A DNA stretch of 64,000 nucleotides, taken from the NCBI GenBank assembly GCA_009691245.1, contig SHUM01000003.1:3099-67098 (forward strand). Reading direction: 5' to 3'. How positions within the stretch are numbered: position 1 is the stretch's first letter; the number at the start of each line of letters is the position of its first letter. Under the pieces are notes generated by a model. The model ran no database searches. It was not told the origin of the DNA and saw only the letters and a program-made list of their open reading frames with translations. Positions 5,394-56,025 of the stretch are shown here, in pieces. A program made the position numbers and the translations under genes. This DNA comes from Acidobacteriota bacterium (GTDB lineage Bacteria > Acidobacteriota > Terriglobia > 2-12-FULL-54-10).

Positions 5394-6539
5394 TCAATGG
5401 GAGGAGTCATTAGTTCTTTGCTGGGGGTTCAAGCTGTAACGGGTCCGGGCTTTTTCGCGGTGCCGCTTGATGGCCAGCTCCACCAGTCGATCGATTAGCT
5501 TAGAGCAGGATAGCCCGCTCGCCGCCCACAGTTGCGGATACATGCTGATTCTGGTGAATCCAGGTATGGTATTGATTTCATTTACATAGAACTTGCCTGT
5601 CTTTTTCTCGAGGAAGAAGTCTACGCGCGCCATGCCCGCACAATCCAAGGCCTGGAAAGCCTCCACAGCCAGTTTTTGCGCCCGCTCCGCCTGCGCAGGT
5701 TTCAGTGGTGCCGGAATCAGCAATTGCGAGTTGTCATCGAGATACTTTGCGGCATAGTCGTAGAACTCATTGCCAGGAACAATTTCGCCAGGCACGGATG
5801 AGATGGGATCTTCATTGCCTAGCACGGAGCATTCGATCTCTCTTGCGTTCATGCCGCGCTCCACCAGAACCTTCAGATCGAAATCGCCGGCCAGCCGTAG
5901 CGCCGGTACCAACTCGTCGCGATTGCTTGCTTTGCTCACACCCACCGACGAGCCCATATTAGCGGGCTTCACGAATACCGGATAACGAAACTCCGCCTCA
6001 ATTTCTTTGCAGAGATCATCCAGACGGACATGGATATCGCGCCGATTCGTTACCACATAGGGAACCACCGGCAACTTGGCCTGTTGGAATAGGCGCTTCA
6101 TGACAACCTTGTCCATCCCCACCGCCGAGCCGAGCACTCCCGAGCCCACGTAAGGAATCTCCGCCAGCTCCAGCAATCCCTGCACCGTGCCATCCTCGCC
6201 GTATGTACCATGCAGGACCGGGAAGACCACGTCGAGGGCACCGGGAAACGTTGTTGCGTTCTGGCTGGCAAGTGGCACCAGAAGTCCTATGCCATCCGGA
6301 CAGGCCGATGGAATTACTTCCACGGCGCCCACGGGTATGGAATCAATCGCCCCATGTCCATTGGGTTCCGGCGGCAACGCGCCCACGCACCAGCGCCCTT
6401 GCTTGGTGATGGCGATGGGGACGACATCGTATTTTTCCGGGTCCGCTGCGGCAATGATGTTCCGCGCCGACTGAATCGATATCTCGTGTTCAGCCGAGCG
6501 GCCGCCGAAGAGGATGCCCAATCTTTTTTTGTTGGCCAT
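5394..6539 (-). CDS. ddl: D-alanine--D-alanine ligase
   Basis: MANKKRLGILFGGRSAEHEISIQSA N-terminus and ATP-grasp architecture; standard Ddl length (381 aa). Confidence 0.9.
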   Translation of the reverse strand: MANKKRLGILFGGRSAEHEISIQSARNIIAAADPEKYDVVPIAITKQGRWCVGALPPEPNGHGAIDSIPVGAVEVIPSACPDGIGLLVPLASQNATTFPGALDVVFPVLHGTYGEDGTVQGLLELAEIPYVGSGVLGSAVGMDKVVMKRLFQQAKLPVVPYVVTNRRDIHVRLDDLCKEIEAEFRYPVFVKPANMGSSVGVSKASNRDELVPALRLAGDFDLKVLVERGMNAREIECSVLGNEDPISSVPGEIVPGNEFYDYAAKYLDDNSQLLIPAPLKPAQAERAQKLAVEAFQALDCAGMARVDFFLEKKTGKFYVNEINTIPGFTRISMYPQLWAASGLSCSKLIDRLVELAIKRHREKARTRYSLNPQQRTNDSSH

Positions 6540-6812
6540 GCTATTTTGAGTGCGTCAATGGTGGATAGGAACTAAGCGTTGCTAACGAACCCCTGCCGCA
6601 GTCTCCCATTATCCACGAGTTATTTTCCTTCGTCCAAACCCGACGGTGCCTGCCCTTCAATGCTGCCACGGTGATCGCCGCGCCCGCAGGCTTTCCAGTG
6701 CGTACAGGTCTATTGACAGTAGCTTATATGGTTCGCTAGTCTAGCCTTTACTTCCCAGACTTGGCTGCACAGGCAGGCCTGCAAGATATCCCGGAACGCA
6801 GAGGCAGTCACC

Positions 6813-9398: not shown

Positions 9399-9458
9399 GG
9401 GTGAGGGCGCTCGCGCACCCTGCTCATATTAGCAGAAGGCGGAGAGGCTAGAGTCCGA

Positions 9459-9543
9459 ACAGAGCCGCGACCGGAAGGGAGCGGTTGCAATATAGAGTCT
9501 CGCAGGTCCAATGAGAACCGCTCCCTCCCGGTCGCGGCTCTGT
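9459..9543. repeat. Palindromic hairpin repeat, family 1 copy A (28-bp arms ACAGAGCCGCGACCGGAAGGGAGCGGTT / AACCGCTCCCTCCCGGTCGCGGCTCTGT, ~29-nt loop)
   Basis: Arms read directly from the sequence, 1 mismatch. Lies 8 bp downstream of the SprT-like gene stop. Confidence 0.7.
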
Positions 9544-9550
9544 CACGCCA

Positions 9551-10237
9551 CTAGAGCTGCTTCAGCAACTCCTTGGCCTCCGCGTATTGCGGGAAGCGCT
9601 GCTCCTCGGCACGGAACTCGGAGGAATGCACGCAGCGTCGCGTGCCGCGATGCAGCACGGGATATTTCAGGTGTAGCATCTCGTGATAGAGGATGTACTC
9701 CACCAGCCACAACGGCGTCTGTGGACGGTCAAAGATGCGACTCACGATGATGGCGTTATGCGCGGAGTCAAAGTGTCCCAGCAGCACGCGTGACGCCGTG
9801 CGGCTCCAGCCCAGCGAGGGCCGGGCCATCAGCCCGCCGAAGTAGCGCTGGTTCAAGTCCTCGAACATTTCATCCAGATGAAAGTGTGAGCCCGCCGCCA
9901 CGCCCACATGCTTGCGTCCGCGCACACGGCGGATGATCTGCGCCTGATGGCGCACGCTGCTGCGGTTGAGGAACTGGCGGTAGCGTGCCTGGAACTGTGG
10001 CGGAATGGGTTTGCGATAGAGCTTCGAGATCAGGATGTAGGCGATGGACTCCAGCACCGGCGGCGGCGAACCTTCGAGCAGATCGGAGAGGCTGACTTCC
10101 ATGCGGCCCGCGCGCATGCGGATGACGTTGTTGATGTCCGCGTAGGGGCGAAACGACAAGGCGATCTCCGGCAGCGGCGTGCGTGGCCGCACCGCCAGAT
10201 GAACGCGCTCGAAAATTTCCATGCCTGCTGAAGTCAT
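9551..10237 (-). CDS. SprT-like/DUF45 (YgjP-like) zinc metallopeptidase
   Basis: HEXXH motif in ...WLVEYILYHEMLHLKYP...; ~228 aa; fold-family assignment by motif only. Confidence 0.55.
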   Translation of the reverse strand: MTSAGMEIFERVHLAVRPRTPLPEIALSFRPYADINNVIRMRAGRMEVSLSDLLEGSPPPVLESIAYILISKLYRKPIPPQFQARYRQFLNRSSVRHQAQIIRRVRGRKHVGVAAGSHFHLDEMFEDLNQRYFGGLMARPSLGWSRTASRVLLGHFDSAHNAIIVSRIFDRPQTPLWLVEYILYHEMLHLKYPVLHRGTRRCVHSSEFRAEEQRFPQYAEAKELLKQL

Positions 10238-11582: not shown

Positions 11583-11680
11583 GTTGGTTGTCATTCCGAG
11601 CGGAGCGAGGAATCTGTTTTTGTCCCGCGCGGCTGAAAACAAAAGCAGGTTCCTCGCTCCGCTCGGAATGACAACCAAAC
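11583..11680. repeat. Palindromic repeat family 2 copy (arms TTGGTTGTCATTCCGAGCGGAGCGAGGAA, 29 bp perfect, with a nested inner dyad CTGTTTTTGT/ACAAAAGCAG)
   Basis: Near-perfect ~100-bp palindrome read directly. Sits 6 bp downstream of the TPR gene stop (minus strand). Confidence 0.65.
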
Positions 11681-13171: not shown

Positions 13172-13252
13172 CAGAGCCCCGACCGCCAGGGAGGGGGCAC
13201 GTTCGCCGATTAGCAGTGACCGTTGTGCGTGCCCCCTTCCTGGCGGTCGGGC
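13172..13252. repeat. Hairpin repeat family 1b, degenerate copy (left arm CAGAGCCCCGACCGCCAGGGAGGGGGCACG; right arm CGTGCCCCCTTCCTGGCGGTCGGGC)
   Basis: Same arm sequence as the perfect copy at 48644..48730, with an indel and loss of the terminal TCTG on the right. 21 bp downstream of the uvrA stop. Confidence 0.55.
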
Positions 13253-17683: not shown

Positions 17684-17743
17684 GTCCCATTCTCGCTTGG
17701 CGCGGCTACCGCCCGCAACCCGACGTGGCGCGGGCGTTGCGCA

Positions 17744-17826
17744 ACAGAGCCGCGACCGAGAGGGAGCGGTAGTTGGATGGCATATCAGCATTCATGGAAC
17801 CGCTCCCTCTCGGTCGCGGCTCTGTT
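17744..17826. repeat. Palindromic hairpin repeat, family 1 copy B (27-bp perfect arms AACAGAGCCGCGACCGAGAGGGAGCGGT, 28-nt loop)
   Basis: Perfect inverted repeat read directly. Lies between divergent gene starts (17683 minus, 17966 plus). Confidence 0.75.
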
Positions 17827-17965
17827 GCGGTCTTTCGCTGCGCTCAAGATGACAGCCTTGTATGACGGGCGTAACGAGTTGGCCCACTCGCTTGAAGTCG
17901 CCCAACGGAACCTGTATTCTCTTTCCTACCCCGGCACATTGGGACTTATTACAGGAGGATCATTT

Positions 17966-48390: not shown

Positions 48391-48470
48391 AACAGAGCCG
48401 CGACCGTTAGGGAGCGCGGGTTGCTCCCCGTAACGAAAGCAACCACCGCTCCCTAACGGTCGCGACTCTG
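48391..48470. repeat. Palindromic hairpin repeat, family 1 copy C (arms AACAGAGCCGCGACCGTTAGGGAGCG / CGCTCCCTAACGGTCGCGACTCTG, loop with nested hairpin)
   Basis: Read directly. 14 bp after the TonB-dependent receptor stop. Confidence 0.65.
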
Positions 48471-48489: not shown

Positions 48490-49281
48490 ATGAATTCACC
48501 GTGGCACCTTCCGCGCATCCCCGAGCCTGAGGAGATGGACTGCTCGGACGAGGTGGAGGTCTACAACTCCGCTGCCGCCTCGGCACACCTCGATGCCATC
48601 GACAACACGTTTGTAGAACATCTGATGAGGCTGCTGCCGGAATCAGAGCCCCGACCGCCAGGGAGGGGGCACGCCAGGGACACAGGGATGATCGGCAACC
48701 GTGCCCCCTCCCTGGCGGTCGGGGCTCTGAGGGATCAAGTGCGAAAATCACAATATCTTGGGTTGGATATTGGCTGCGGCCCGGCGCAGATTCCTGTGAA
48801 GACGCTTCAGCGGGTTCCAGGCCTGCGGTTGGTTGGTCTGGATGGCGCGGGCAACATGCTGCGCTGCGCGCGCGCGAATGCCGTGCAAGCTGGCGTTGAG
48901 GATCGGCTGATACTGGCCCAAGGCGACGCGAAGAATCTGCCCTTCGCGGACGGCACGTTCTCCATCGTCACCTGCAACTCGATGCTGCACCATGCGCGTG
49001 ATCCTCTGGCGCTGTTGCGCGAGATACGCCGCGTGGCCGCTCCCGGTGCGGCGATCCTACTGCGCGACCTACGGCGTCCGGCGTATCCGCTTCAGGCCTG
49101 GCACCTATGGCGGCATGGACGGAAATACAGTGGGCTGATGCGCCGCCTGTTCGACTTGAGCGTGCAAGCCGCATACACCGCCGACGAACTGGAGGCCATG
49201 CTGCGCGCCGTGCCCATCCCAGGCGCGCGCGTGTTCCGCTACAAGGGCGCGCATATTGGAATTGAAAGGCGGGGGAATTGA
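48490..49281 (+). CDS. Class I SAM-dependent methyltransferase carrying an in-frame 87-bp hairpin-repeat insertion
   Basis: SAM motif LDIGCGPAQ and acidic motif (ILLRDL). N-terminal region is ~30 aa longer than usual. The extra residues SEPRPPGRGHARDTGMIGNRAPSLAVGAL are exactly the translation of the repeat at 48644..48730. Confidence 0.7.
   Translation: MNSPWHLPRIPEPEEMDCSDEVEVYNSAAASAHLDAIDNTFVEHLMRLLPESEPRPPGRGHARDTGMIGNRAPSLAVGALRDQVRKSQYLGLDIGCGPAQIPVKTLQRVPGLRLVGLDGAGNMLRCARANAVQAGVEDRLILAQGDAKNLPFADGTFSIVTCNSMLHHARDPLALLREIRRVAAPGAAILLRDLRRPAYPLQAWHLWRHGRKYSGLMRRLFDLSVQAAYTADELEAMLRAVPIPGARVFRYKGAHIGIERRGN
48644..48730. repeat. Hairpin repeat family 1b, perfect copy (30-bp arms TCAGAGCCCCGACCGCCAGGGAGGGGGCACG, 25-nt loop), located inside the CDS
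   Basis: Perfect 30-bp inverted repeat read directly. 87 bp = 29 codons, so the frame is preserved. Confidence 0.75.
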
Positions 49282-49385
49282 TACGAGCCTGTCCGCAGAT
49301 TACACAGATGGCGGGTTAACCCTTCTGCGAAATCTGTGCAATCTGCGGACAGGCTCCGTTACTTCGTTTCGGGAACATGCGTTGG

Positions 49386-55518: not shown

Positions 55519-55948
55519 GTGGACTCCTTTGGCCCTCGGAAGGAGGAAACGCAATACCGCCGAGACGGGGAGGCCAGTGTTGGTGGAAGCGGAGGATGAG
55601 GCGAAGGCGCGACCCTTACACAAAATAAACAACGATGCACTAAATCAGCGCAACAGTGATTTCAAAGATGGAAAGACAGCGCCAAGCTCATCGGACTTCC
55701 CCTCGAAGCCGATTCCCGCAGGGGGGTTCTTGGCAGGTCTCCTGGCTGATGCTTTAACGGATCGAGCGCCTTCCCATCCCGGCGTGCCTATTACGGCAGT
55801 ACGGAACAGTGGCGAATTGCTCAATCCAACGCAATCACAGTGGCGGGGCCGCGCTGGTTTCTCACCAGCTTCCCTATTGATGATTAAGCACCAAGAACAT
55901 TTTCCATGTTGCAGGCAGGAAGGCACGGCTGTCAAGCGGCGCGTAAAT

Positions 55949-56025
55949 TGGGGTGGGCGACGGGGCTCGAACCCGCGACTTCCGGAATCACAATCCGGCG
56001 CTCTGCCAGCTGAGCTACGCCCACC
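55949..56025 (-). tRNA. tRNA-His (anticodon GTG) with encoded G-1 and 3' CCA
   Basis: Reverse strand GGTGGGCGTAGCTCAGCTGGCAGAGCGCCGGATTGTGATTCCGGAAGTCGCGGGTTCGAGCCCCGTCGCCCACCCCA. Cloverleaf folds: acceptor GTGGGCG/CGCCCAC, anticodon loop TTGTGAT, T-loop TTCGAGC, discriminator C73, extra 5' G typical of tRNA-His. Confidence 0.9.

Follow-up and report, generated by a model that had tools for sequence, protein, structure and literature searches.

A class I SAM-dependent methyltransferase (MTase) gene in the 64-kb stretch of DNA analysed here (the window) contains a perfect palindrome that lengthens the predicted product by 29 residues and leaves the gene intact. Each arm is identifiable, from its sequence and predicted fold, as a REP-like hairpin with the CnGA foot of the class 3 HUH-Y1 systems, a family already described in 2018, and the two arms together form an inverted dimer. 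This insertion of a hairpin into a gene is real, belongs to a kind of event that has been documented previously, and does not amount to a system of a new type. The explanation preferred here, with a probability of about 0.8, is that a class 3 REP-like dimer was inserted in a length-variable linker of the MTase with the frame kept. An inverted dimer of the ~26-nt unit would have been mobilised as single-stranded DNA by a class 3 Y1 enzyme whose gene lies elsewhere in the genome, and would have entered the linker that joins the conserved N-terminal helix to SAM motif I.

The left arm of the palindrome, TCAGAGCCCCGACCGCCAGGGAGGGGGCACG (48643-48673), is the reverse complement of the right arm (48700-48730), with 31 of 31 positions complementary (100%) and 26 nt between the arms. 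The predicted RNA fold has a free energy of -78.5 kcal/mol, compared with -41.3 +/- 3.6 kcal/mol in shuffled sequences (z = -10.5). An initial annotation of the window had described a perfect hairpin at 48644..48730 that lies in the coding sequence ahead of the LDIGCG motif, adds 29 codons and maintains the frame. All of this is borne out except the coordinates, which are one base off: the palindrome has 31-nt arms and a full length of 88 nt, of which 87 nt (48643-48729) are net extra coding sequence. The additional codons encode SEPRPPGRGHARDTGMIGNRAPSLAVGAL, residues 52-80 of the ORF. The left unit agrees with the published class 3 architecture '.(((((..((....))..)))))' (PMC6006769), and the spacer between the arms is unique across all sequences compared. 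No direct repeat that would represent a target-site duplication was found around the palindrome (flanks ...CCGGAA/T...A/GGGATC), and no defined target motif was identified at the insertion site. Coordinates of all features are listed in Table 1.

Table 1. Features of the window that bear on the MTase insertion, in order of position.
Feature	Position	Strand	Details
Intergenic dimer, G-subfamily	9448..9554		arms 85% complementary
Sister copy, C-subfamily, intergenic	13172..13252		left arm same as MTase copy over 32 nt; right arm decayed; other spacer
Intergenic dimer, G-subfamily, divergent genes either side	17740..17829		perfect 31-nt arms
Second dimer beside MTase, G-subfamily	48393..48470		loop GTTA; arms 91% complementary
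Class I SAM-dependent methyltransferase CDS, host of the insert	48490..49281	+	263 aa; ORF and Pfam
Perfect palindrome, inverted 'feet-outward' dimer of class 3 REP-like unit	48643..48730		88 nt
Left REP-like unit, C-subfamily	48644..48669	+	foot CAGA (48644-48647), stem CCCC/GGGG, tandem G.A pairs, CC/GG, loop GCCA
Dimer spacer (loop)	48674..48699		CCAGGGACACAGGGATGATCGGCAAC; 26 nt; encodes roughly ARDTGMIGN
Right REP-like unit	48704..48729	-	exact reverse complement of left unit
In-frame GTG, conceivable internal restart 3' of the hairpin	48739..48741	+	GAGG at 48729-48732, 6 nt ahead; from sequence only
Unrelated hairpin repeat	49285..49356		GAGCCTGTCCGCAGATTACACAGAT; arms 96% complementary; fills spacer between MTase stop and convergent ADH gene

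Pfam assigns the host ORF to Methyltransf_11/25/31, the Methyltransf_11/25 matches (E 1e-20 to 1e-18; 3.6e-20 for Methyltransf_11) starting at residue 92, and alignments with PDB homologues begin at residue 91. SAM motif I, LDIGCGP (residues 92-98), fits the pattern (V/I/L)(L/V)(D/E)(V/I)G(G/C)G(T/P)G. A 100% identical protein, P0001, is derived from a metagenome-assembled genome (MAG) and carries the name 'class I SAM-dependent methyltransferase [Acidobacteria bacterium]', which matches the acidobacterial origin presumed in the initial annotation. In the orthologue alignment the window MTase has all invariant family residues and no frameshift.

The closest orthologues (P0003-P0007; 73-77% identity, 231-239 aa), which share conserved OMP-MTase-ADH synteny, have a linker of ~10 aa where the window MTase has the 29-aa block, and DNA alignment reveals empty sites with conserved flanks and synteny in L002, L003, L127, L128 and L129. 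The same block was not found in any aligned orthologue, which agrees with the initial annotation in treating it as an insertion and not as ancestral sequence. A search of 5.8 billion proteins returned no relative closer than 72% identity, which means that those data contain no empty-site allele of the window species. Repeats unrelated to this one lengthen the same linker in about 30 other orthologues, and permissiveness of the loop is therefore the general feature. Inserts in the linkers of L005 and L006 were considered as class 3 copies and rejected, the first being a 9-nt tandem repeat and the second a different sequence with small hairpins. The L002 linker, GCGTCGCGACCGCTGGGCCCAGCG, was likewise rejected as an arm remnant ('scar'), as the empty linkers of L127 and L129 are homologous to it (T-A-[TS]-R-[LP]-[RL]) and it is unlike the unit.

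One orthologue, P0002 (locus L001), has an intact ORF in which a copy of another subfamily, decayed to 84% complementarity, occupies the same codon position; in both genes the element follows ...C[C/T]GAA. The site thus tolerates an insert over the long term. The initial view of a mobile unit in a tolerated loop is upheld, whereas a single, very recent event is not the only history to be considered. The two copies belong to different subfamilies, the stem being CCCC/GGGG and the loop GCCA in the window but CCGC/GCGG and GTCA, respectively, in L001. They differ also in the frame of the left arm, which has one extra T in the window, and their spacers are unrelated.

The shared codon could nevertheless reflect a single ancestral occupation, in which the dimer was gained once in the ancestor of the window MTase, P0002 and P0003-P0009, deleted in P0003-P0009, and overwritten in the window lineage by gene conversion or re-insertion. 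Long palindromes are prone to deletion, and in a neighbour-joining tree of the MTase, (window,(P0002,(rest))), the window sequence is basal and P0002 next, so that one gain and one loss are as parsimonious as two gains. However, subfamily, left-arm frame and spacer all differ between the two copies, the window arms are perfect and match the copy at 13172 over 32 nt, and the homologous empty linkers of L002, L127 and L129 have no convincing arm remnant. A clade of the window MTase and P0002 is weakly supported (29 of 200 bootstraps). A single ancestral gain is thus possible but rather doubtful.

Insertion in a length-variable linker is also consistent with the predicted structure. An AlphaFold (AF2) model of the MTase (pLDDT 82, pTM 0.79) has an alternating β/α core, and the insert sits between a helix (residues 28-48) and strand β1 (90-94), ahead of SAM motif I. 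Residues 50-75 are modelled as coil with pLDDT of 43-58, the remainder is confident, and no clash of the insert with the MTase fold is seen in the model. The insert is thus predicted to occupy a disordered, flexible surface loop, as had been suggested initially. Survival of the reading frame can be attributed to the net 87 nt being 29 codons, to the GCCA-loop subfamily being free of stops in the frame used, and to the tolerant surface loop; frame 'a', by comparison, is closed in units with loop GTGA or GTAA. Units of the family were also found in-frame in other genes, flanked by Pfam domains, namely those for a Pyr_redox_2-family flavoprotein (L090), cobW (L049) and PrmC (L068), and, in ACP linkers, between PP-binding domains (L037).

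The perfect arms suggest that the window copy is young, and the full-length MTase is probably produced and active. A perfect 31-bp RNA helix could impede translation or attract RNase III and, because of this possible effect on the mRNA, we infer rather than observe that this young copy is tolerated. If instead the element were a recent disruptive hit on which selection has yet to act, the helix would block translation or trigger RNase III, and the gene would be dead or truncated from GTG 48739, a nascent pseudogene. The lack of any mismatch between the arms, the stability of the helix and the GAGG 6 nt ahead of the GTG are in keeping with such a hit. Moreover, dS between the window MTase and every relative is saturated, and measures of selection are therefore silent on the time since insertion. 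A restart at this GTG is conceivable though the idea is weak, and its product, beginning at residue 84, would be without 13 invariant N-terminal residues. The ORF of L001 stayed intact while its copy decayed to 84% complementarity, units or dimers of the family are in-frame within several other intact genes, and the model predicts no fold clash; a disruptive hit is accordingly judged unlikely.

A consensus for the unit, 5'-CnGA-G-CCSC-GA-CC-GNNA-GG-GA-GSGG-3' (~26 nt), was built from 165 units among the matches listed. In the CnGA foot, position -1 is C in 129 of the 165 units, any base can stand at position 0, and GA occupies positions 1-2. The CCSC/GSGG stem can pair at positions 6 and 21 in every unit (G-C in 144, G.T in 15, C-G in 6). 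The loop is GNNA, with GNRA in 100 of 167 units among the matches listed, and only 7 of these 167 belong to the C-subfamily. ViennaRNA folds the consensus as ....(((((..((....))..))))) at -13.1 kcal/mol, the same structure as that published.

In their account of class 3 systems, Quentin et al. (2018, BMC Genomics 19:475; PMC6006769) describe REP-like hairpins that adjoin class 3 HUH-Y1 transposase genes, have a CnGA foot, and reach ~600 copies in Solibacter usitatus. Hosts named there are Planctomycetes, Acidobacteria and Proteobacteria, including Legionella, and in the 'atypical' secondary structure a 4-5 bp stem leads through a 2x2 internal loop to a 2 bp stem capped by a tetraloop. Table S1 of that paper gives AGCCGCGACCGTCAGGGAGCGGTCG with the structure.(((((..((....))..))))). 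for Solibacter usitatus and CCGAGCCGCGACCGTAAGGGAGCGGA for Legionella. The window units match this description in unit sequence (AGCCGCGACCGTCAGGGAGCGG...), foot, fold, high copy number and host range. The repeat unit recognised in the initial annotation is thus a member of a family already on record, and the insert is an inverted dimer of it. The TIRYT repeats of Acidobacteria (motif GGGGWSAS, PMC3733652) were considered as an alternative identity and do not match the MTase element.

A genome scan recovered at least 120 loci with the unit, in Bryobacterales/Solibacteraceae, Planctomycetota and Gammaproteobacteria, including Legionella shakespearei, with a few further loci in Chloroflexota and Desulfobacterota among the matches listed. 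Outside the window, units are solo or dimeric, and dimers among the matches listed are feet-outward in 39 cases versus feet-inward in 11. About 5% of the sampled copies are verifiably intragenic.

The window itself has ten units arranged as five dimers, against 0.1 expected, and the 26-nt core occurs three times against 0.00 expected from shuffles. The G-subfamily unit GAGCCGCGACCGNNAGGGAGCGG is present at 9462, 9518, 17747 and 17800, with one-base variants at 48395 and 48446, and the C-subfamily variant GAGCCCCGACCGCCAGGGAGGGG at 13174, 48646 and 48705. The degenerate intergenic sister copy at 13172 had been noticed initially, while the dimers starting at 9448, 17740 and 48393 had been overlooked. 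The last of these ends 20 nt upstream of the MTase ATG, within the 112 nt that separate this ATG from the OMP stop, whereas in six orthologous loci the two are only 1-5 nt apart. On the other side of the MTase, the spacer towards the convergent ADH gene contains other hairpin elements in the orthologous loci, and in L002 and L129 these include class 3 units. Spacers of the five window dimers are mutually unrelated; the copies at 48643 and 13172 have common arms but different spacers, and only the spacer of the 13172 copy resembles that of another locus (L046).

Analogy with IS200/IS605 and REP/RAYT would suggest that a class 3 Y1 enzyme mobilises the element and, with this, that the window copies are linked to such an enzyme. 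A motif scan (NHVH ... YV..EQ) of the window and 129 loci found no class 3 tnpA-Y1 gene, and the Legionella locus L076 has an intergenic unit pair only and no class 3 gene. All-against-all clustering of ORFs from 120 loci among the matches listed revealed no enriched transposase-like family near the copies; the top cluster, a candidate sensor protein judged by sequence, occurs in just 10 of the 120 loci listed. The class 3 systems portrayed in PMC6006769 differ in this respect, as there the genes are flanked by units, and according to that account none of the class 3 enzymes has been biochemically tested. The single units flanking transposase genes and the copy counts reported in PMC6006769 are extended by the present data, as, to our knowledge, neither inverted dimers as the common dispersed form nor in-frame units inside genes, as in the window MTase, are among the descriptions of class 3 given there.

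REPs are short hairpin units that occur singly or as inverted doublets folding into a longer hairpin (Bertels and Rainey 2011, PMC3116915; Di Nocera et al. 2013, PMC3733652). Most REPs lie outside genes, frequently where two convergent genes meet, and they are tied to a single-copy HUH-Y1 enzyme (PMC3116915, PMC3733652), and in-frame intragenic REPs are on record (PMC3733652). The window dimers resemble REPINs in having two inverted units, a short spacer and a single hairpin. However, their foot is CnGA with no GT[AG]G or CGTC tag, and the published enzyme association of their family is with class 3, not with class 2 (RAYT). Clonal REPINs replicate the whole doublet including the spacer, whereas window copies with identical arms have different spacers, which is contrary to the prediction of simple self-copying of the whole dimer. 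MITEs (Correia, ERIC, Nezha) are small, non-autonomous elements with terminal inverted repeats and occasional in-frame fusions with host ORFs, but they originate from insertion sequences of the DDE-transposase type and generate target-site duplications (PMC10969869). There is no duplication at 48643/48730, and the window unit matches an HUH-Y1-associated hairpin.

The rickettsial palindromic elements (RPEs; Ogata et al. 2000), as summarised in PMC10969869, are AT-rich, ~100-150 bp, Rickettsia-specific and have no known transposase, and roughly half of those in three families are intragenic. No sequence relationship to the window element, whose host is an acidobacterial MAG, is to be expected. 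The likeness to the window element is one of behaviour only, both being palindromic repeats that are in-frame in unrelated genes, at fold-compatible positions, and that add peptide; it does not extend to frequency, as about 5% of the sampled window-family copies are verifiably intragenic compared with the roughly half given for RPEs in that summary. On another reading the hairpin would be a selected RNA element, kept for regulation of mRNA by stability, processing or attenuation and not selfish. The GNNA loop (mostly GNRA), the tandem G.A pairs and the G.T wobble in 15 stems would suit an RNA, and REPs of other bacteria are often transcribed and influence mRNA stability (PMC3733652). Yet Rfam returned nothing above gathering thresholds for the window hairpins, permissive E-values giving generic long-hairpin matches only (miRNA precursors, and mraW with 32.6 bits where the cutoff is 50), and the family has no Rfam entry. 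Sheared G.A pairs and GNNA loops stabilise hairpins in ssDNA as well, and such hairpins are substrates of HUH enzymes. A scan at the hairpin in the CDS found neither a terminator tail nor a promoter, the closest orthologues are without the hairpin, and both strands of a palindromic dimer look alike, which leaves no orientation signal. Selection as an RNA element is thus considered very improbable.

Two further readings would remove the insertion altogether. A mis-annotated start, in which the gene would begin 3' of the hairpin and the palindrome would be an ordinary REP in an intergenic region or a 5'-UTR, is suggested by the intergenic position of four of the five window dimers and by the GTG at 48739; on sequence comparison it can be regarded as effectively refuted, as residues 1-51 align to all orthologues (71-84% identity, dN/dS 0.05-0.17, equal to the core) with 13 invariant positions and the ATG is 1-5 nt past the OMP stop in all orthologous loci, and conservation of this N-terminal segment argues for 48490 as the true start. 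A repeat-induced chimeric join is conceivable given that the sequence comes from a MAG and that the repeat has many copies, but its probability is negligible, since both flanks continue one orthologous gene in the same frame, the spacer is unique, and an 88-nt element is shorter than a typical read and an unlikely break point.

Insertion of a class 3 dimer in the MTase linker provides a clean, well-controlled example of a REP-like element that adds 29 residues without breaking an enzyme, the controls being empty syntenic sites, the old copy that one orthologue carries at this position, and the structure model. To the class 3 system, which has been little studied, it adds that inverted feet-outward dimers are the usual dispersed form, that the family reaches many uncultured Bryobacterales and Planctomycetota, and that units are in-frame within several unrelated genes. 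For annotation, the family accounts for the recurrent peptides EPRPxGSG, SRDRxGA, AATVRER, PLPxGRGS, RSLTVAA and APSRSRL in soil-metagenome proteins and spurious ORFs alike. A broader proposal, to be taken as speculative and improbable as it stands, is that CnGA hairpins repeatedly, and with selectivity for the site, give rise to in-frame inserts in loops and linkers across Acidobacteria and Planctomycetes, in an RPE-like manner and guided to particular ssDNA targets. Such guidance would explain different subfamilies at the same codon in two orthologous MTases, and also the unit at the equivalent pre-motif I position in PrmC (L068), a second MTase family. If true, it would represent an RPE-like process in free-living, GC-rich bacteria.

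The palindrome lies inside an open reading frame whose product matches Pfam Methyltransf_11 and Methyltransf_25 from residue 92, aligns with PDB homologues from residue 91 and shows 100% identity to a database protein from an Acidobacteria MAG, and which encodes a class I SAM-dependent methyltransferase (MTase). As RNA, the palindrome has a computed folding energy of -78.5 kcal/mol, versus -41.3 +/- 3.6 for dinucleotide shuffles (z = -10.5), and neither a terminator tail nor a promoter was found at the hairpin. The in-frame palindrome reported in the initial annotation is confirmed in every respect except its coordinates, which were off by one base.

Features of the window and in-frame copies in other loci (L numbers, fetched DNA loci)
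Feature	Location	Strand	Description
Palindrome, left arm	48643-48673		TCAGAGCCCCGACCGCCAGGGAGGGGGCACG; perfect; 26 nt between arms
Palindrome, right arm	48700-48730		exact reverse complement of left arm
Host ORF (MTase)	48490..49281	+	263 aa; palindrome inside
MTase residues 52-80	48643-48729		SEPRPPGRGHARDTGMIGNRAPSLAVGAL; in-frame contribution of palindrome
CnGA-family hairpin 1	9448-9554		
CnGA-family hairpin 2	13172-13252		
CnGA-family hairpin 3	17740-17829		
CnGA-family hairpin 4	48393-48470		
CnGA-family hairpin 5	48643-48730		in MTase
L090			full dimer splits Pyr_redox_2; Pyr_redox_dim downstream (Pfam)
L037	443-462, 1322-1341		two solo units, same orientation, SEPRPSGSG; linkers among four tandem PP-binding (ACP) domains; PKS/PUFA-synthase-like, KR domain
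L049			unit inside cobW domain (Pfam)
L068	~6357-6376 (PrmC/HemK gene, 5806-6738)	- (gene)	solo unit, peptide RSLTVAA, between PrmC_N and MTase domain (Pfam)
L038, L072, L103			copies at protein termini; more ambiguous

Each arm is a small hairpin unit, 5'-CnGA-G-CCSC-GA-CC-GNNA-GG-GA-GSGG, and the other four hairpins built from it in the window are intergenic. Among 165 units, taken from the window and from other genomes, pairing is possible at the S positions in every one (G-C in 144, G.T in 15, C-G in 6). The units have a GNNA loop, with C-n-G-A as the consensus at positions -1 to 2. A scan with a 20-nt core, taking one genome per species, gave at least 120 loci, and hosts among the matches listed are Bryobacterales/Solibacteraceae, many Planctomycetota, some Gammaproteobacteria including Legionella, and a few others. 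'Class 3', as described by Quentin et al. 2018 (PMC6006769), is a small class of HUH-Y1 proteins from Planctomycetes, Acidobacteria and Proteobacteria. Their genes have atypical hairpins bearing a CnGA foot at the 5' end on their flanks, and Solibacter usitatus has about 600 copies of these hairpins. Their Table S1 gives AGCCGCGACCGTCAGGGAGCGGTCG, with the structure.(((((..((....))..)))))., for Solibacter and CCGAGCCGCGACCGTAAGGGAGCGGA for Legionella pneumophila. The window unit shares the CnGA foot, the fold and the host range, and the MTase element corresponds exactly to that system. The MTase insert is therefore an inverted dimer of a known REP-like family with its feet facing outward. The earlier reading, a mobile palindromic unit that was tolerated as a loop or is very recent, is supported, and it is sharpened by assignment to a published family.

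In all sequence compared, neighbouring units form 39 feet-outward, 11 feet-inward and 6 tandem pairs, and many units are solo. At about 3440-3530 of L022, GTGGGGCAGCCATTCCTGGCTGCC comes straight after a CnGA unit; it is nearly the subclass 2.7 REP of S. usitatus, GTGGGGCAGCCATTCCTGGCTGTC (Table S1 of PMC6006769), so that two REP families stand next to each other. One dimer in L057 (5568-5752) has a triplicated segment of ~47 nt (TTGCTCAGACTCCGCTTACTGCGTGCGCGGCTCTTTGTG x3) between its arms, which looks like tandem amplification of a degenerate right arm.

The linker between the conserved N-terminal helix (...FVEHLLRLLP) and motif I (LDxGxGP) is short in ~70 of 120 retrieved orthologues, and in the closest, P0003-P0007 (73-77% identical, 231-239 aa), the corresponding stretch is ~10 residues long, against 42 in the window MTase. 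DNA was fetched for six orthologous loci. All have the order TonB-type OMP then MTase, with ADH downstream where the contig reaches; the flanks are alignable, and five of the six carry an empty site. In both the protein and the DNA alignments the 29-aa block is extra in the window MTase, and relative to its nearest relatives it is, as first proposed, an insertion. Three results exclude GTG 48739, downstream of the hairpin, as the true MTase start: residues 1-51 are 71-84% identical to orthologues, have dN/dS of 0.05-0.17, equal to the catalytic core, with 13 invariant positions, and the ATG lies 1-5 nt past the OMP stop in every orthologous locus.

In an AlphaFold2 model (mean pLDDT 82, pTM 0.79) the fold is confident except for residues ~50-75, a coil at pLDDT 43-58 between helix 28-48 and a short helix (76-86) leading into strand b1 (90-94), which agrees with the loop position initially suggested. 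That the linker is a permissive loop is well supported, because ~30 orthologues have it widened by unrelated sequences. In other clades, linker sequences unrelated to CnGA include a 9-nt tandem repeat, (ACCGAGRGA)n, giving a TEGTERTE peptide (L005 10165-10224); L006 (10150-10270) has an 'ATEAQRHRE...' block with a nested 26-nt mini-hairpin, CGAAACGACATAGATATGTCGTTTCG, peptide RNDIDMSF.

Both the perfect arms and a 32-nt stretch of the left arm that the intergenic C-subfamily copy at 13172 shares without mismatch point to a young MTase copy. One orthologue, P0002 (locus L001), has a dimer of another subfamily at the same codon, after ...C[C/T]GAA, with stem CCGC/GCGG, loop GTCA, a different spacer and the left arm read in another frame. 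As the protein tree, (window,(P0002,(P0003-7,P0009))) with weak support, places P0002 between the window and the rest, one ancestral gain plus one loss is as parsimonious as two independent gains. Independent hits, or a replacement, are tentatively favoured because subfamily, frame and spacer differ. In L001 the element is down to 84% complementarity and the ORF is still intact, evidence for long-term tolerance of an insert at this site. The window copy may itself be tolerated, but saturated dS to every relative leaves selection since its insertion beyond measurement, and the perfect 31-bp helix might impede translation of the mRNA or be a target of RNase III.

The spacer of the 13172 copy, TTCGCCGATTAGCAGTGACCGTTG (13202-13227), is identical at 21 of 24 positions to that of a G-subfamily dimer in a Sulfopaludibacter MAG (L046 3274-3297), and the MTase copy has an unrelated spacer despite its identical arms. 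Simple copying of whole dimers does not account for this pattern.

Other repeats surround the gene. The 112-nt spacer from the OMP stop to the MTase ATG consists almost wholly of CnGA-family hairpin 4, and as the two genes are 1-5 nt apart in six orthologous loci, suggesting translational coupling there, its insertion may have separated OMP and MTase expression. Between the MTase and ADH genes, which are convergent, the spacer is filled by a third hairpin family (49285-49356) unrelated to CnGA, GAGCCTGTCCGCAGATTACACAGAT, with arms 96% complementary. Orthologous loci carry other hairpins 3' of MTase, including class 3 units in L002 and L129; the unit at L002 4176-4208 begins right after the MTase gene, and its AACAG end gives a TAA stop (TAACAGAGCCGCGACCGTGAGGGAGCGG). 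Elsewhere in the window, 11584-11678 is a distinct hairpin repeat, TTGGTTGTCATTCCGAGCGGAGCGAGGAATCTG..., with 40-nt arms 95% complementary and unrelated to CnGA, and a cobalamin riboswitch (55715-55910, minus strand; Rfam RF00174, 96.7 bits) adjoins a tRNA-His(GTG) gene (55949-56024, minus strand).

Among copies examined, 51 of 147 sit in a frame with at least 50 open codons to either side, a figure to be taken as an upper bound given the GC-rich DNA. Around in-frame copies in the loci tabulated, Pfam confirms genuine domains, the copies at protein termini being more ambiguous. The unit in L068 falls immediately ahead of motif I (ILDIGAGSG), which in structural terms is where the insert lies in the window's MTase, an unrelated enzyme. 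In L103 (1587-1652) a full dimer occupies the signal-peptide region of an OEP/NodT-type lipoprotein (MKRITAALFL[RSEPRPSGSGMPQAPGTAPSRSRLR]LLAPLALLAASTGC), where the spacer ATG could act as a new start and the arm supply a positively charged n-region. In-frame palindromic repeats are already known: examples are the RPEs of Rickettsia (summarised in PMC10969869), GTAG/CGTC REPs within genes (PMC3733652) and REPs in tnpA-REP genes (PMC6006769). The available passages yielded no description of in-frame class 3 units.

By analogy with IS200/IS605 and REP/RAYT systems, whose mobilisation is established knowledge summarised in PMC6006769 and PMC3116915, the dimer would be mobilised as single-stranded DNA by a class 3 Y1 enzyme whose gene lies elsewhere in the genome. 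No class 3 Y1 gene was found in the window or any fetched locus, and class 3 enzymes lack experimental tests according to PMC6006769. The MTase frame survives because the net addition is 87 nt, because the C-subfamily (stem CCCC/GGGG) has the loop GCCA, the commonest loops GTGA and GTAA giving a stop in the frame used (EPRPxG..), and because the site is a permissive loop.

The MTase element is thus a member of a published REP-like family, and such elements are already documented to insert in frame. What is new on the CnGA family is modest: the dimer is the form in which it is commonly dispersed, it ranges broadly among uncultured soil and aquatic bacteria, class 3 units are found in frame in several gene families, and one MTase linker has been occupied repeatedly.
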